From UHGV virus genome UHGV-2124687: 13,465 nt of DNA; one strand, given 5' to 3'. Numbering within the stretch: the first letter of the stretch is position 1; every line of letters starts with the position of its first letter. This DNA is from a virus. The translations under genes and the position numbers were made by a program. This document shows, in pieces, positions 3,054 through 10,695 of this stretch. The notes beneath the pieces were generated by a model. The model made no database searches. It saw only the letters and a list, made by a program, of their open reading frames with translations, and had not been told where the DNA came from.

Positions 3054-3461
3054 TTATTTTTTTTCTGTTCGTTTGCGGGCTTTTAGGAGTTCTTCGAAGA
3101 GCTGGTTGAAGTTTTCAACTCGAGCCCGGAGATTTTGGATTTGAGCTTGTTGCTCTGATTCTGGCAAAGAGCGATAGAGCTCAAGCATCTCTTGTTCATC
3201 AACGCTTAAAGTTCTCTGCTCTTCAATTGAGACTGGTTCTGCAGGAGTCTGGTCTTCATCACCAAACAAAATCCAAGTAGGGCTGCACTGGAGCACCTTA
3301 GCAAGTGCATGCAGGTTCTTACCTGAAGGCTCTGTGTTGTCACTTTCCCATAGCGAAATAGTGGCGTGCGATATCCCGAGAGCTTTTCCAAGATCTCGCT
3401 GCGTTAACCCAACATCTTTGCGTCGACGTAATACTCGACGACCTAAAGTTTCACTATTCAT
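3054..3461 (-). CDS. dicA: DicA-like HTH (XRE-family) prophage repressor, 135 aa
   Basis: Translation has an N-terminal HTH (GLTQRDLGKALGISHATISLWE) and the tail ...AKVLQCSPTWILFGDED...LPESEQ...RARVENFNQLFEELLKARKRTEKK, closely matching my recollection of E. coli DicA (same length). Divergent from a Cro-like gene. Confidence 0.9.
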   Translation of the reverse strand: MNSETLGRRVLRRRKDVGLTQRDLGKALGISHATISLWESDNTEPSGKNLHALAKVLQCSPTWILFGDEDQTPAEPVSIEEQRTLSVDEQEMLELYRSLPESEQQAQIQNLRARVENFNQLFEELLKARKRTEKK

Positions 3462-3474
3462 GTTTAGATATCTT

Positions 3475-3496
3475 AATTCTTCTTGACTAAAGAATT
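3475..3496. promoter_or_regulatory. Candidate operator: inverted repeat AATTCTT-N8-AAGAATT with TTGACT in the spacer
   Basis: Read directly in the 82-bp divergent intergenic region; TTGACT at 3483-3488 is a -35-like hexamer pointing toward the Cro-like gene. Binding not established. Confidence 0.4.
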
Positions 3497-3543
3497 CTCA
3501 CCAAATAACCTTGTTAAATAAACTCAACAAACGAGGTTGCTTA

Positions 3544-3783
3544 ATGTACAAAATTGATGCCGTGAAATTTTTCGGCACAAACACTCAAGTGGCACATGTT
3601 GCTGGCGTCGACCGCTCTGCTGTAAGTCAATGGAAAGAACTTGTTCCCGAGCGCTGTGCTCAGCGTCTCTCTGATGCCTCAAATGGCGCACTCATCTACG
3701 ACAAAGACGTTTATGACCGTTACCGCCAGGCCAAACGCCTTGGTAAACAGAATACCTGCATAACCAAGAAGGAATCTGATTGA
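3544..3783 (+). CDS. ydaS: YdaS-like Cro-type HTH protein, 79 aa
   Basis: ATG at 3544 with GAGG 7 nt upstream; motif AHVAGVDRSAVSQWKELVPERCAQRLSDAS matches the YdaS/Cro-like pattern; divergent from the repressor; stop overlaps the next start (TGATG). Confidence 0.75.
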   Translation: MYKIDAVKFFGTNTQVAHVAGVDRSAVSQWKELVPERCAQRLSDASNGALIYDKDVYDRYRQAKRLGKQNTCITKKESD

Positions 3784-4259
3784 TGAAAATCAACGAGATT
3801 AAATTGCTGGCCATCGAGCTGGAAGAGTGGGCGATGAAGGATGGCAGGAAAGGGGGCTGGAAAAAGATAGTCCCGCTGATTACAGCGCATCACTACGGTG
3901 ATTTGCTGGACAGCCTGACAGATATCGTGGACCCGTCAGAGTATGTGCGCCGCCTGCATAACAACACGCAGATCATCCAGCGGGCATTTCGAAATGACAC
4001 ACCGAACTATCGTGGCCAGGCAGCTGCGCTGGCGCCAGCAATCAAAGCTGCGATGGATGCAGAGCTGGCTGGTCAGCATGACTTACATAACCTGGTGGCC
4101 ATTGCGAACCGCGAGTGCATCGAGGCGACCAGTGCAGTGCTGACTGGTAAGCCAATGCAGGTAATCCGCAAAGAAACGGCAGAGGCAATTCAGGCTCTGG
4201 CCGATCTCATCCCCGGCGTCAGCATTCAGTTCAACCATATTGGTCCACGCGCGGCGTAA
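3783..4259 (+). CDS. ydaT: YdaT-like protein, 158 aa
   Basis: Translationally coupled immediately downstream of the YdaS-like gene, as in Rac racR-ydaS-ydaT; the family call rests on position and general similarity from memory. Confidence 0.55.
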   Translation: MKINEIKLLAIELEEWAMKDGRKGGWKKIVPLITAHHYGDLLDSLTDIVDPSEYVRRLHNNTQIIQRAFRNDTPNYRGQAAALAPAIKAAMDAELAGQHDLHNLVAIANRECIEATSAVLTGKPMQVIRKETAEAIQALADLIPGVSIQFNHIGPRAA

Positions 4260-4271
4260 CAGGAGGCTCCC

Positions 4272-4514
4272 ATGCTTGCCCAGGAATTAGTAGACCGCAT
4301 GAAAAATGCGATGAAGCACAAAGTACCGGCGGAGACAGTCGATCGCAGCGCTGAAATGATTCCGGGGATGAAATACCGCAACGAACGCGGACGCATGGTG
4401 ACGGTAATGAGAGTTTCTCATCTTCGGGTTATGTACCGATACGAAGGTTATCAGGACATCTGCGAGACCAGCCGCAGAGAGTTTGATTTGAAATTTAGAA
4501 AGGTGCAGTCGTGA
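4272..4514 (+). CDS. Hypothetical protein, 80 aa
   Basis: AGGAGG 6 nt upstream of the ATG; stop overlaps the GTG start of the replication gene (GTGA). Confidence 0.6.
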   Translation: MLAQELVDRMKNAMKHKVPAETVDRSAEMIPGMKYRNERGRMVTVMRVSHLRVMYRYEGYQDICETSRREFDLKFRKVQS

Positions 4515-5605
4515 GCAGCAAATTACACGGTCTTGTATGGGAAGGGTGCGCTCCTGCTGGATTGGGAATTTCCCGCGTTGCGCTTATGGCCCGCCTGGCT
4601 GATTACAGCAATGCTGACGGCATATCGTGGCCAGCGATTGAGACGCTCAGGATTGAGATCGGCGCTAAAAGCGATACGACAATAAAAACTGCTTTAGCTG
4701 AGCTTGTTAAGGGCGGCTGGATTAAAAAAACAGAACGCAAGCTGGGTGGAAGAAATCTGACAAATGTTTATCAGATTGATATCGCAAAACTCGAAGAAGC
4801 GGCAGCAGAGGGGCGTAAAAAAATACGGGAAGAGAGAGCCAAAAAGAAAGGTTCCCGTTGCCTGCCAGCAGGGCAGGAAGATAAGGCGTCAATTTTTGAC
4901 CCGTCAAATAATGACCCCTTAAAAGAGGATGGTAAGGGGGCAGATTTTGACCCGTCAAAAATTGAGGGGTCAAAAATTGGTGAAAACAGCGATTTAACCC
5001 CCCCAAAAATTGACCCCGATCCGTCATTAAAACCTGATCCGTCATTAAACCCCACACATAACACGCGAGGGGGAGAGGTCGAACCAGTTCATAACAATCC
5101 GGTTCCTGAATATCCCGGACAGCCTGGTATGAATTTTCCCGCCGGAGAGTCATTTGGGAAGGTCCCAATGACCATTGACTGGAAACCGTCGGCTGACTTT
5201 CGCCAGCGCGTTGGATTCTGGGGCATAACGATCCCGGATGGACTGAACCTCAGAGGCGAGCTGAACAGCTTCATTGCCTACTGGCAGCCAGAGAATAAAG
5301 TTTTTTACCAGTCGCAGTGGGAGCAGAAATTTGCCCGCCACCTGCAACAGGCCAAACCCACTAAACCGCGAGGTAACTCACATGCAGGACTGGATCCAAA
5401 CTCCACAGCAAACGCAGCTGTACAGCGAGCACGCGCAGCACACGCTGCACAACTCCGCGCTCGAGGAGAAGGCGTGGAAGTTCTGGGTTCTCATGCTGGA
5501 AATATACTCCAGCCGGTGGGAAACCAAAAACGGATCGGCTCCGTCGGACCTATGGATTGCTCAGATTGGGAATTTGACCAGCGACCGGATGACGAGCGTC
5601 TGTAA
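4511..5605 (+). CDS. Replication initiator (O-like): N-terminal DNA-binding domain, low-complexity linker, DnaT-like C-terminal domain
   Basis: GTG start coupled to the upstream gene; C-terminal block PMTIDWKPSADFRQRVGFWGITIPDGLNLRGELNSFIAYWQPENKVFYQSQWEQKFARHLQQAKP resembles the DnaT C-terminal domain. The last ~74 codons overlap the P-like gene out of frame and are Ala/Arg-rich, so the true 3' end is uncertain. Confidence 0.7.
   Translation: MSSKLHGLVWEGCAPAGLGISRVALMARLADYSNADGISWPAIETLRIEIGAKSDTTIKTALAELVKGGWIKKTERKLGGRNLTNVYQIDIAKLEEAAAEGRKKIREERAKKKGSRCLPAGQEDKASIFDPSNNDPLKEDGKGADFDPSKIEGSKIGENSDLTPPKIDPDPSLKPDPSLNPTHNTRGGEVEPVHNNPVPEYPGQPGMNFPAGESFGKVPMTIDWKPSADFRQRVGFWGITIPDGLNLRGELNSFIAYWQPENKVFYQSQWEQKFARHLQQAKPTKPRGNSHAGLDPNSTANAAVQRARAAHAAQLRARGEGVEVLGSHAGNILQPVGNQKRIGSVGPMDCSDWEFDQRPDDERL
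4893..5049. repeat. Iteron-like repeat cluster inside the initiator gene; candidate replication origin
   Basis: TTTTGACCCGTCAAA at 4894 and 4945, related TTGAGGGGTCAAAA at 4962, TTGACCCC at 5010, and GATCCGTCATTAAA twice (5018, 5035). Falls in the low-complexity linker coding region, as the lambda origin does in O. Confidence 0.55.
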
Positions 5606-6044
5606 CGCGATGGTTGATCGCTGTGCGGCGGGTAATTCATGGCCACCTGACCTGGCTGAGTTCGTGACGCTGGTGGCTGACTGTGACGGCGGGAAGCTTG
5701 GACTGAAGGTTTCGGACGTTATGGCGGAATACAGGAACTGGCGCAACGAATCTTACCGTTACGCCAGCACTGAGGAATATTTCATTGACCGCAAATGTAA
5801 TCCGGTCCTGTACCAGATTTGCACCGAACTTCGCCGAACTGGTGTTGAGCGACAAATGACCCAACCCGAGCTGGAGAGACTGGCTGCGGACCAACTGGTG
5901 AAGTGGGAAAAACACCTGGAGGATGGCAAGCCGATCCCTCCGGTAAGAAAACAGATTGCGGCGCCGCGCCATCCGGCAGGACCGACACCCGCGCAGCAGC
6001 TGCTTGAAGAATACAAACGCCGTAAAGCGGCTGGCTTAATTTAA
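5382..6044 (+). CDS. Lambda-P-like replication protein (helicase loader), 220 aa from ATG 5382
   Basis: GAGG 8 nt upstream of the ATG at 5382; segments LWIAQIGNLTSDRMTSVCNAMVDRCAAGNSWPPDLAEFVTLV and ELERLAADQLVKWEKHLEDGKPIPPVRKQ parallel recalled lambda P regions. Confidence 0.7.
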   Translation: MQDWIQTPQQTQLYSEHAQHTLHNSALEEKAWKFWVLMLEIYSSRWETKNGSAPSDLWIAQIGNLTSDRMTSVCNAMVDRCAAGNSWPPDLAEFVTLVADCDGGKLGLKVSDVMAEYRNWRNESYRYASTEEYFIDRKCNPVLYQICTELRRTGVERQMTQPELERLAADQLVKWEKHLEDGKPIPPVRKQIAAPRHPAGPTPAQQLLEEYKRRKAAGLI

Positions 6045-7541: not shown

Positions 7542-7560
7542 NNNNNNNNNNNNNNNNNNN
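7542..7560. other. Run of 19 N (gap or masked bases)
   Basis: Literal n characters in the sequence. Confidence 1.
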
Positions 7561-9091: not shown

Positions 9092-9587
9092 TCAAAGTGT
9101 CATCATCATTTCATGCCATGCCATTCCACCGTGGTCCGATTCTGACGGTTTGATGTACTGGTAACCAAAATGGGCGTACAGATCGACGTGGCGGTCTTTG
9201 CACATCAGGTGAATGGTTTTTTTGTTCATTGCTATCATGCGCGTCACAAATTCACGCATCAGTAATGATGAATATCCTTTGCCCTGGTAATCAGGGTGCA
9301 CCACGACAGACATAATCACTGCATTGGGTGCATCCGGATCGTGACCTACCAGTTCTTTGAACTCTTCGTCGGACATCACGACTTCCCACGCACAGCCCGC
9401 ATTAATGAAACCAATAACGTCACCGTTCAACTCCATGCATANNNNNNNNNNNNNNNNNNNNNNNNNNNNNNNNNNNNNNNNNNNNNNNNNNNNNNNNNNN
9501 NNNNNNNNNNNNNNNNNNTGTGATTTCAATATCATAGCAACGATCAACATCGGCATCAGTGGCCTGACGGAATACAGGGGTAGACAT
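9092..9587 (-). CDS. GNAT-family N-acetyltransferase, interrupted by the N run
   Basis: Start reconstructed by hand at 9587 (MSTPVFRQATDADVDRCYDIEIT...), upstream of the track ORF 9092..9556; downstream part has a GNAT-like core (HPDYQGKGYSSLLMREFV). Frame across the gap is undefined. Confidence 0.8.
9442..9518. other. Run of 77 N (gap or masked bases) inside the GNAT gene
   Basis: Literal n characters in the sequence. Confidence 1.
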
Positions 9588-9723: not shown

Positions 9724-10695
9724 ATGATGTCAACGTTGCGCAAGATCGATCTGAATTTATTGCTTATATTCGATTCTCTTTATCGGCATGGAAGCGTGAC
9801 GGAGGCCGCCAACGAACTGGCACTAAGCCCATCCGCACTAAGTCATGCGCTCAATCGCTTACGTACATCACTGGACGATCCCTTATTCGTGCGCACTGGT
9901 GGAAGCATGGTGCCCACGTCAAAAGCTGAAAGCATTGCAGCAAGTATTTCTGCCGCTCTAGGAAGTCTCTCGTCCTGCCTGCATGAGCCAGAACACTTTG
10001 AGCCGGAAAAAAGCCGGGAGAGTTTTACCTTTGCTGCTACGGACTACACTGCCGCCGCTATCCTGCCAAGCTTGATCGCGAGGGTTAACAGCCTTGCGCC
10101 GGGCATTACCATTAAGCTTATCTACTCACGCGATTTTAACGCCGACGAAGATTTGCTTTCAGGCAAAGTTGATTTCGCCCTTGGCTTTGAAGAAGAGCAG
10201 AAAGCCCCACGGCGCGGCATAGAGTCGATTACTTGCTTTACTGATGATTACGTGGTTGCAGTGCGACGCGGTCATCCTAATATCCAGGATTCCCTTACCC
10301 AAGAGCGTTATCTGAGCGCCGGACACGTAGTGGTGCGTCCATGGTTGGAAAGACGGGGGGGGATCGACCGTTATCTGGAAAGTCAGCAGGTACGTCGCCG
10401 GGTCGTTGTTGAATTGCCAAGCCTGATGATTGCCCCAATTATCGTTTCGAATACTGATCTGGTTATCACGCTTCCCAAGCGGGGGATCTCATCAGTTTTT
10501 GATATGAAAAATCTGGTGGTGTTTGCTCCCCCGTTCCCGACACCACAGTACATTTTGAAAGCCTATTACAGCCCGGCACTCGGTAACTCGCCAGGGCATA
10601 TATGGATGAGGGGGCAAATTTTGCAGGTTTGTGATCCGCTAAATCCGGCGATGCCAGTAATTGCTGTCGATACAAATTCTGGTACAGAAAGGTAA
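9724..10695 (+). CDS. LysR-family transcriptional regulator, 323 aa
   Basis: N-terminal LysR-type HTH (KIDLNLLLIFDSLYRHGSVTEAANELALSPSALSHALNRLR) and typical length; divergent from the GNAT gene across a 136-bp AT-rich region. Confidence 0.9.
   Translation: MMSTLRKIDLNLLLIFDSLYRHGSVTEAANELALSPSALSHALNRLRTSLDDPLFVRTGGSMVPTSKAESIAASISAALGSLSSCLHEPEHFEPEKSRESFTFAATDYTAAAILPSLIARVNSLAPGITIKLIYSRDFNADEDLLSGKVDFALGFEEEQKAPRRGIESITCFTDDYVVAVRRGHPNIQDSLTQERYLSAGHVVVRPWLERRGGIDRYLESQQVRRRVVVELPSLMIAPIIVSNTDLVITLPKRGISSVFDMKNLVVFAPPFPTPQYILKAYYSPALGNSPGHIWMRGQILQVCDPLNPAMPVIAVDTNSGTER

Follow-up and report, generated by a model that had tools for sequence, protein, structure and literature searches.

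A probable lambda-type replication origin within the initiator gene of a lambdoid prophage

Introduction

An origin of replication that lies within the gene of its own initiator is a known arrangement among lambdoid phages. In ori-lambda, O-binding iterons and an AT-rich tract occupy the middle of gene O, with four iterons in lambda and six in Shiga toxin (Stx) phages (PMC7466680). Here, we analyze a stretch of 13,465 nucleotides (nt; hereafter the window) from the UHGV virus genome UHGV-2124687, in which a predicted replication initiator gene carries a cluster of short repeats in its linker-coding part. We assign a probability of roughly 0.78 to the reading that this segment (4881–5049) serves a lambdoid prophage as its vegetative replication origin, contained within the gene of its own initiator. 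A sequence-only reading of the same DNA had proposed a probable origin at this place. That proposal is supported by the pairing of an O-like initiator with a P-like loader, by selection at the DNA level, by covariation of the repeats with the N-terminal domain (N-domain) of the initiator, and by a position equivalent to that of the lambda origin. The variant features of the present locus are a pair of GATC-containing repeats, a 15-bp phasing of repeats that occur in both orientations, and a DnaT-like C-terminal domain (C-domain).

A second described system also bears on this locus. Lambda O is reported to match the HTH_36 family by HHpred, and a domesticated lambda O/P-like pair, DopC/DopE, is encoded by resident chromosomal genes of Cellvibrionales and Oceanospirillales, in which the authors found no iterons (PMC5509034). 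In our literature search, which covered the older literature thinly, we found no prior description of the iteron family reported below, only the work on lambda and Stx phages and the DopC/DopE paper. One further candidate precedent (PMC6118388) concerns the iterons of an IncX1 plasmid and was set aside as irrelevant.

Repeats in the linker-coding part of the initiator gene

The initiator gene and its two predicted domains are positioned as follows (aa, amino acids; ORF, open reading frame; pLDDT, predicted local distance difference test; ssDNA, single-stranded DNA):

4511–5605, plus strand: replication initiator gene, 364 aa, GTG start (ORF, Pfam, PHROG)
4568–4858, plus strand: N-terminal winged-helix domain (aa 20–89) and long helix (aa 91–116) (AlphaFold2, pLDDT 70–84)
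5165–5353, plus strand: DnaT-like ssDNA-binding domain (aa 219–281) (Pfam, PDB, Foldseek)

The predicted protein runs from a winged helix through a long helix and a disordered linker to a DnaT-like domain and a tail. Pfam places HTH_36 at aa 25–71 (E 5.5e-6) and DnaT at aa 219–281 (E 4e-14), and the PHROG families that match are 'replication initiation O-like' (aa 1–182, E 2e-25) and 'primosomal protein'. A total of 201 homologues were found, and the AlphaFold2 model was built on 50 homologues. By Foldseek, the N-domain resembles MarR/PadR/TFE-type winged-helix proteins (E ∼1e-3); together with the long helix, it is the presumed iteron reader and oligomerisation element. The C-domain matches the solved ssDNA-binding domains of E. 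coli and Salmonella DnaT (PDB chains 9zbt/4ou6) with an E of 4e-15, and its Foldseek comparison with 4ou6 gives a target-normalised template modelling (TM) score of ∼0.8. The sequence-only reading had located the repeats in a low-complexity linker between two domains. This holds, as the two Pfam domains flank a segment, aa 116–209, across which the pLDDT stays below 50. Because these residues correspond to nt 4856–5137, the whole repeat cluster is encoded in the predicted disordered linker, where coding constraint would be weak enough to admit DNA signals.

The repeats themselves comprise an iteron array and, partly overlapping its end, two GATC-containing 14-mers:

4881–5021, both orientations: iteron array of about nine units in ∼15-bp phasing, with four strong and about five degenerate copies
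4896–4907, plus strand: strong iteron TTGACCCGTCAA, one mismatch to the family consensus TTGACCCCTCAA
4911–4922, plus strand: iteron ATGACCCCTTAA, two mismatches to the consensus TTGACCCCTCAA
4947–4958, plus strand: strong iteron TTGACCCGTCAA, same as the copy at 4896
4962–4973, minus strand: strong inverted iteron, TTGAGGGGTCAA on the plus strand and a perfect TTGACCCCTCAA on the minus strand
4881–4892, 4932–4943, 4977–4988, 4994–5006 and 5010–5021: degenerate in-phase units
4994–5021, plus strand: the last two of these, iteron-like units TTAACCCCCCCAA (one extra C) and TTGACCCCGATC, near-invariant among homologues
5018–5031, plus strand: first GATC-containing 14-mer GATCCGTCATTAAA, a Dam site and an iteron-related half-site variant
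5036–5049, plus strand: second GATC-containing 14-mer GATCCGTCATTAAA, a Dam site, whose 3′ end TTAAA (5045–5049) is a module-exchange junction

The array unit is a 12-bp near-palindrome with the consensus TTGACCCCTCAA, found in either orientation. Dyad symmetry inside the units takes the forms TTGAC-CC-GTCAA (core TTGACCCGTCAA) and TTGA-GGGG-TCAA. The degenerate unit TTGACCCCGATC (5010–5021) overlaps the first GATC 14-mer, and both 14-mers look like an iteron with an altered left half (CTGATCCGTCAT versus TTGACCCGTCAA). A run of seven Cs followed by five As (ACCCCCCCAAAAA) lies inside the ORF at 4998–5009 and is kept, with few exceptions, in window-type homologues; it can be read as a degenerate iteron with an additional C, and also as a potential slippage site.

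The repeat cluster is real and non-random. The copies singled out by the sequence-only reading are all present, namely two identical copies of the 15-bp TTTTGACCCGTCAAA (4894–4908 and 4945–4959), two identical copies of the 14-bp GATCCGTCATTAAA, and further related copies, and a motif search of the region found them clustered beyond dinucleotide-shuffle controls. At ≤2 mismatches, TTGACCCGTCAA has six matches versus 1.04 expected, a number that none of 200 dinucleotide shuffles reached. At the same threshold, TTGACCCCTCAA has four matches inside 80 bp, a cluster size reached in 0 of 300 shuffles, and its sole match outside the cluster in the 13.5-kb window is at 10606. The shorter 9-mer GAYCCGTCA (≤1 mismatch) is weakly enriched over the whole window, with eight matches versus four expected (5 of 200 shuffles reach eight); five of the eight fall within 4898–5044.

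Selection on the repeats at the DNA level

To place the array in its family, we used 89 related loci from species-representative genomes and IMG/VR, which contain 50 distinct homologous genes (51 with the window's own). IMG/VR also holds a 99%-identical prophage (UViG_2924933432_000001). Substitutions were compared between the window and four homologues (L014, L015, L021 and L022) that share 72–78% amino-acid identity with it. Across 4871–5080, third positions of conserved codons are 100% identical, versus 0.2–0.8 elsewhere in the gene. Amino-acid identity in the same segment is as low as 0.45–0.8, and nucleotide identity is higher. In the N-domain, substitutions at the first, second and third codon positions number 12/7/48, 10/8/53, 7/7/54 and 10/9/56 in the four homologues, with 72–79% at the third position. 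In the repeat region, the corresponding counts (11/9/6, 11/11/10, 16/14/15 and 9/12/9) are evenly spread, and the two distributions differ with Fisher p values of 1e-6 to 6e-5. Substitutions are present within the repeat block, but they spare the motif cores.

Individual units also invert. The window's TTTGACCCGTCAAAA, which encodes FDPSK, is replaced in L014 by ATTGAGGGGTTAAAT, which encodes IEGLN; the outer TTGA....T(C/T)AA is retained and the peptide is rewritten. Among 201 units from the 51 distinct genes, the C-run is on the sense strand in 130 and on the other strand in 71, and the position matrix of all 201 reads AA-nnn-TTGACCCCTCAA. Because units invert with the outer palindrome kept and the peptide changed, the object of selection is a double-stranded DNA motif, and the comparative data show that the repeats are selected as DNA and not as peptide.

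The array is conserved wherever its N-domain is. Each full-length gene with a related N-domain (45–99% identity; from E. coli, Edwardsiella, Erwinia, Mixta, Morganella and uncultured viral (IMG/VR) contigs) contains 3–10 TTGACCCCTCAA-type 12-mers, in the linker and in 15-bp phasing, and these loci have at most one such match outside the linker in ∼8 kb of flank. The sequence-only reading had named absence of the repeats from close homologues as the observation that would speak against it; every homologue with a shared N-domain, whether close or distant, has the repeats, and no such absence was seen. Copy number varies by whole 15-bp or 45-bp steps, with 6, 7, 9 or 10 units in Edwardsiella loci. 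In Edwardsiella-type L004, L008, L025, L067 and L072, gene nt 356–509 hold 6–10 iterons through duplication of a 45-bp block. This block consists of three units (two C-run, one G-run), and its duplication adds VDPPNIDPPTVEGLT peptide repeats to the initiator.

Natural chimeras link the repeats to the N-domain

Two kinds of natural chimera separate the N-domain from the remainder of the module. In L016–L020, the C-domain is that of the window and the P-like gene is 99% identical, but the N-domain shares only 26% identity; in the place of TTGACCCCTCAA units, which are absent, these loci have five AACCCAAAAACGGGA-type repeats. Similarly, L023 has an unrelated N-domain and contains GAAGTGGCAAAACTGCCACATGGAA twice, which forms the palindrome GTGGCA-AAAC-TGCCAC. 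In the reciprocal chimeras, L021/L022 and a common 325-aa E. coli type, a window-type N-domain, its iterons and the GATC pair are joined to a lambda-O-type C-terminal half (39% identity to that of lambda O, E 3e-23).

In the DNA alignment, both kinds of chimera break at the TTAAA at 5045–5049. Because the breakpoint is shared, the N-domain, the iterons and the GATC pair travel as one module, as expected if the N-domain reads the repeats. The array is co-inherited with the N-domain; the repeats change when the N-domain does, and by this comparison the two make up one specificity unit. The conserved LNPTHNAR-coding DNA just 3′ of the TTAAA is also found in Rac-SA53 ydaU.

Comparison with lambda and other replication systems

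The array lies at the position equivalent to that of ori-lambda. A repeat search of the lambda genome returned the four classical iterons (ATCCCTCAAAACGAGGGA-like) in codons 117–145 of O, followed, at the place equivalent to that of the GATC pair, by the A-rich tract ACAAAAGACACTATTACAAAAGAAAAAAGAAAAGATTATT, in which there is no GATC. In a protein alignment of lambda O, L021/L022, the window and the E. coli type, the lambda iterons and AT tract share columns with the window's iterons and GATC pair, and these columns sit just ahead of the conserved start of the C-domain. Pairwise identity between the initiator and lambda O in direct alignment is only ∼20%. The sequence-only reading had likened the arrangement to the lambda origin inside gene O, and the likeness is borne out by the shared alignment columns, the dyad repeats in the linker and the loader gene downstream.

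As in lambda and the six-iteron Stx phages 933W/P27, dyad-symmetric repeats occupy the linker-coding middle of the initiator gene. The window likewise encodes a DNA-binding N-domain and a C-domain that, as predicted here, works with a P-type loader encoded directly downstream, and its genes form an early rightward operon after cro- and cII-like genes. In both cases, iteron number varies among relatives, and the N-domain and origin behave as one exchangeable specificity module. The iteron sequences, however, are unrelated (TTGACCCCTCAA versus ATCCCTCAAAACGAGGGA). The window's 12-bp units keep a strict 15-bp (five-codon) phasing in both orientations, whereas the ∼19-bp units of lambda share one orientation and a spacing of 20–24 bp. 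The AT-rich tract of lambda has the conserved GATC 14-mer pair in its place, the window's C-domain is DnaT-like rather than that of lambda O, and the overlap between the O and P genes is 224 nt long, as opposed to 4 nt in lambda.

A closer group in iteron sequence comprises the initiators of SfII/SfIV, mEp460-type and many E. coli, Klebsiella and Edwardsiella prophages (phrog_391/phrog_11896), which share the N-domain family at 39–55% identity. The SfII/SfIV-type group has the same TTGAC....GTCAA iterons, 15-bp phasing and a GATCCGTCA pair. These initiators carry a lambda-O-type C-domain, some with a DnaC-like loader, in contrast to the window's DnaT-like C-domain and P-like loader.

In domain architecture, the window's initiator and loader are identical to DopC/DopE, with an HTH_36 N-domain and a DnaT C-terminal motif beside a Phage_lambda_P-family protein. 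The window's gene differs from a domesticated DopC in being phage-borne, in a lambdoid prophage region, and in having a full iteron array. Being phage-borne and bearing iterons, it looks like a mobile, origin-bearing counterpart of the DopC/DopE architecture.

The order of repressor, cro-like gene, YdaT, initiator and loader is shared with the Rac YdaU/YdaV region. Rac YdaU has a homologous DnaT-like C-domain and tail (36% identity over aa 182–356) and a different N-domain. The ydaV gene of Rac is annotated only as 'putative replication protein', and we take it to be DnaC-like. The sequence position of the Rac origin, oriJ, was not found in the literature searched.

Iteron plasmids offer a further comparison. 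RepA/pi/TrfA-type origins have direct iterons of 17–22 bp outside the rep gene, together with DnaA boxes and AT-rich 13-mers. In the window, by contrast, the repeats are in-gene, 12 bp long and in both orientations, with no DnaA box and no AT-rich tract.

The GATC repeat pair

The GATC 14-mers are the best-conserved part of the whole repeat region, and the first (5018–5031) shows no variation across 9/9 aligned sequences. Every full-length gene of this N-domain type contains a GATCCGTYA pair, 18–24 bp apart and ∼23 bp past the last unit. The L016 and L023 types also have two short direct repeats at the equivalent position, each with a GATC, 15–22 bp apart.

In the GATC-clustered origins of E. 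coli (oriC 13-mers) and plasmid P1 (oriR heptamers), short direct repeats with Dam sites stand beside initiator-binding sites. In comparison, the window has two GATC sites (up to three in relatives) and no DnaA boxes. We also considered GATCCGTCATTAAA as an oriC 13-mer; by eye, its resemblance to the consensus is weak, and we do not rely on it.

We propose, as a hypothesis only, that the GATC pair is the best candidate for an unwinding, loading or methylation-sensitive element. Gating by Dam methylation and SeqA is suggested because three iteron/N-domain types, otherwise unrelated, each have two closely spaced GATC repeats in this position. The data further suggest that, in the window's subtype, the DnaT-like ssDNA-binding C-domain may capture the opened strand, allowing melting without a classical DNA-unwinding element. 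A scenario that combines replacement of a lambda-type AT tract by GATC repeats, Dam/SeqA gating, strand capture by the DnaT-like domain and descent of DopC/DopE from an ancestor of this type is tentative, and we regard it as doubtful when its parts are taken jointly.

Proposed mechanism and alternative explanations

In the mechanism that we envisage, the winged-helix N-domain, probably as dimers, would bind the 12-bp near-palindromes (TTGA-CCCC-TCAA, in either orientation and 15-bp phasing), and the bound initiator would assemble a higher-order nucleoprotein complex on the array. Transcription from the upstream early promoter would pass through the origin. The DnaT-like C-domain and the P-like loader would deliver host DnaB to an opened region at or beside the array or the GATC repeats, and the GATC 14-mer pair, on the promoter-distal side, may serve as an unwinding, loading or methylation-sensitive element. 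By analogy with lambda O and ori-lambda, we infer that the initiator binds, that the DNA melts and that DnaB is loaded; any involvement of Dam or SeqA is likewise an inference.

Several observations weigh against an origin at this place. A duplex-stability scan found no low-stability AT-rich tract adjoining the array. The AT content of the proposed origin is 56.6%, versus 47.5% elsewhere in the gene. The least stable 50-mer of the proposed origin reaches only the top 13% of the window, and in stability the segment 5023–5122 falls at the window's 40th percentile. DnaA boxes are not enriched, and none lies near the array. Only ∼7 bp separate the half-sites of the 12-mer, an unusual spacing for a winged-helix dimer, and the true recognition unit could differ (e.g., TCAA-AAA-TTGA across adjacent units). 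Rac-SA53 ydaU, checked for iterons, has no repeat array inside the gene; not every DnaT-like initiator is therefore encoded by a gene that contains an origin. Lastly, the literature searched contains no published origin activity or initiator binding for this repeat family.

The main alternative accepts the repeats as real initiator-binding sites but gives them another role, such as autoregulation of the O/P operon, handcuffing copy control, or titration and exclusion of related phages, with initiation elsewhere in the prophage. The comparative data establish DNA-level selection and linkage to the N-domain, not initiation, the array adjoins no AT-rich unwinding element, and plasmid iterons serve in negative control as well as initiation, all of which would suit such a role. 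Nonetheless, the array is equivalent in position to ori-lambda and tightly linked to a helicase-loader gene, and there is no second cluster of the motif in the window. Moreover, the O-binding repeats are the origin in lambdoid phages (PMC7466680). We judge such another role, with initiation elsewhere, to be unlikely.

A second alternative attributes the DNA conservation to recent horizontal exchange, at a module junction or a recombination hotspot, rather than to functional constraint. Lambdoid phages are mosaic (PMC3945230), and the conserved segment ends exactly at the junction used by the two kinds of chimera. Against this, the motif, its phasing and the GATC pair persist down to 45% N-domain identity, in five genera and with differing copy numbers, and a recently transferred block cannot explain conservation that persists over such deep divergence. 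In addition, substitutions inside the block avoid the motif cores, and the present data suggest that the block phylogeny is congruent with the N-domain tree over deep divergences. Recent exchange as the source of the conservation is thus very improbable.

A third alternative is that the repeats are mere low-complexity linker, built of DPS/EGS pentapeptides and devoid of DNA-level function. The segment does encode a predicted disordered linker, and the repeats are in frame with a 15-bp (five-codon) period, but nucleotide identity exceeds amino-acid identity, synonymous sites are invariant and third-position bias is absent. Furthermore, inverted units change DPS to EGS/EGL yet keep TTGA....TCAA, and different N-domains come with entirely different repeats on the same C-domain. 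We find a linker without DNA-level function barely credible.

Finally, constraint from an overlapping antisense gene or from antisense promoters is as improbable: antisense ORFs exist at 4722–5168 and 4771–5064, one antisense frame is stop-free in most homologues, and three weak promoter-like matches (9/12) lie on the minus strand at 4878–4973, inside the array, where TTGAC resembles a −35 hexamer, but no alternative frame, sense or antisense, is conserved or consistently open across homologues (the antisense frames gain stops in some, and their amino-acid identity of 0.56–0.80 is no better than that of other frames), and the promoter-like matches have poor −10 hexamers and do not exceed shuffles (4 versus 2.8 ± 1.5). 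The leftward sigma-70-like matches in the array arise because the iteron starts with TTGAC. Both the antisense or alternative-frame gene and the antisense promoters were rejected as sources of the constraint.

Neighbouring genes and related records

The genes on either side of the proposed origin are those of a lambdoid early-right operon:

3054–3461, minus strand: cI-like repressor
3511–3783: Cro-like regulator
3780–4259: YdaT/CII-like regulator (phrog_163 'CII-like transcriptional activator'), occupying the CII position
4272–4514: DUF4222 protein, directly abutting the initiator gene
5382–6044, plus strand: lambda-P-like helicase-loader gene (Pfam Phage_lambda_P; phrog_109 'P-like helicase loader', aligned from residue 10)

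Downstream of the replication genes are a RusA-like gene and a Q-like antiterminator. Rightward transcription from the upstream genes (3054–4514) would cross the origin. DUF4222 genes are annotated beside related initiators in several plasmid-borne prophage records as well. Runs of N (masked or unresolved) occur at 7542–7560 and 9442–9518, outside the replication module.

The loader gene appears to begin at an ATG at 5382, with GAGGT upstream at 5370–5374, and its first 224 nt (5382–5605) lie, in another frame, within the 3′ end of the initiator gene. Its start codon, ribosome-binding site and N-terminus, as well as both frames of the overlap, are kept in homologues of 70–99% identity. A second peak of synonymous-site conservation, at 5471–5560, is due to this overlap of the initiator and loader genes. 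The family phrog_15931 (482 positions, function unknown) matches initiator aa 173–354 (5029–5605) and then the P-like protein (5445–6041); such a consecutive match suggests that some phage annotations fuse the two overlapping genes.

Within the overlap, 32 nt at 5555–5586 are identical to a spacer in a type I-E CRISPR (clustered regularly interspaced short palindromic repeats) array of E. coli SY038 (NZ_CM185151.1). The protospacer match is preceded by an ATG at 5552–5554, and ATG is an accepted type I-E protospacer-adjacent motif. The spacer identity indicates that E. coli SY038 has immune memory against this phage module. This spacer was the sole match in a near-identity DNA search of complete E. 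coli genomes with the initiator gene; the same search of GenBank phages gave no match.

We also looked for natural mini-replicons as indirect proof of origin function, and found nothing usable. One record, L094 (NZ_CP148542.1), is a 15,977-bp circular E. coli 'plasmid' that consists solely of a lambdoid immunity-replication-Q-lysis segment. Its initiator (1660–2637) is of the present N-domain type and has four iterons, and is split by a frameshift in the GATC-repeat region; the record may represent an assembly artefact, an excised fragment or a replicon like lambda-dv. The second record, 8.6 kb from K. pneumoniae, is linear and resembles a prophage fragment.

Implications

Replication modules of this kind are very common in enterobacterial prophages and are usually annotated merely as 'replication protein O', 'primosomal protein I' or 'DnaT-like protein'. 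The present analysis provides a sequence-level definition of their probable origin, comprising the iteron consensus, its phasing, the boundaries of the array and the exchange junction. The locus also illustrates dual coding clearly, as the sequence of a disordered protein linker is set by an array of binding sites. Several leads emerge, among them a possible substitute for the AT tract, possible sensitivity to methylation through the GATC pair, and the possible cooperation of a DnaT-like domain with a P-like loader. The 4511–6044 cassette is, in addition, a candidate minimal replicon, similar to lambda-dv, for hosts of the Citrobacter/Enterobacter group.

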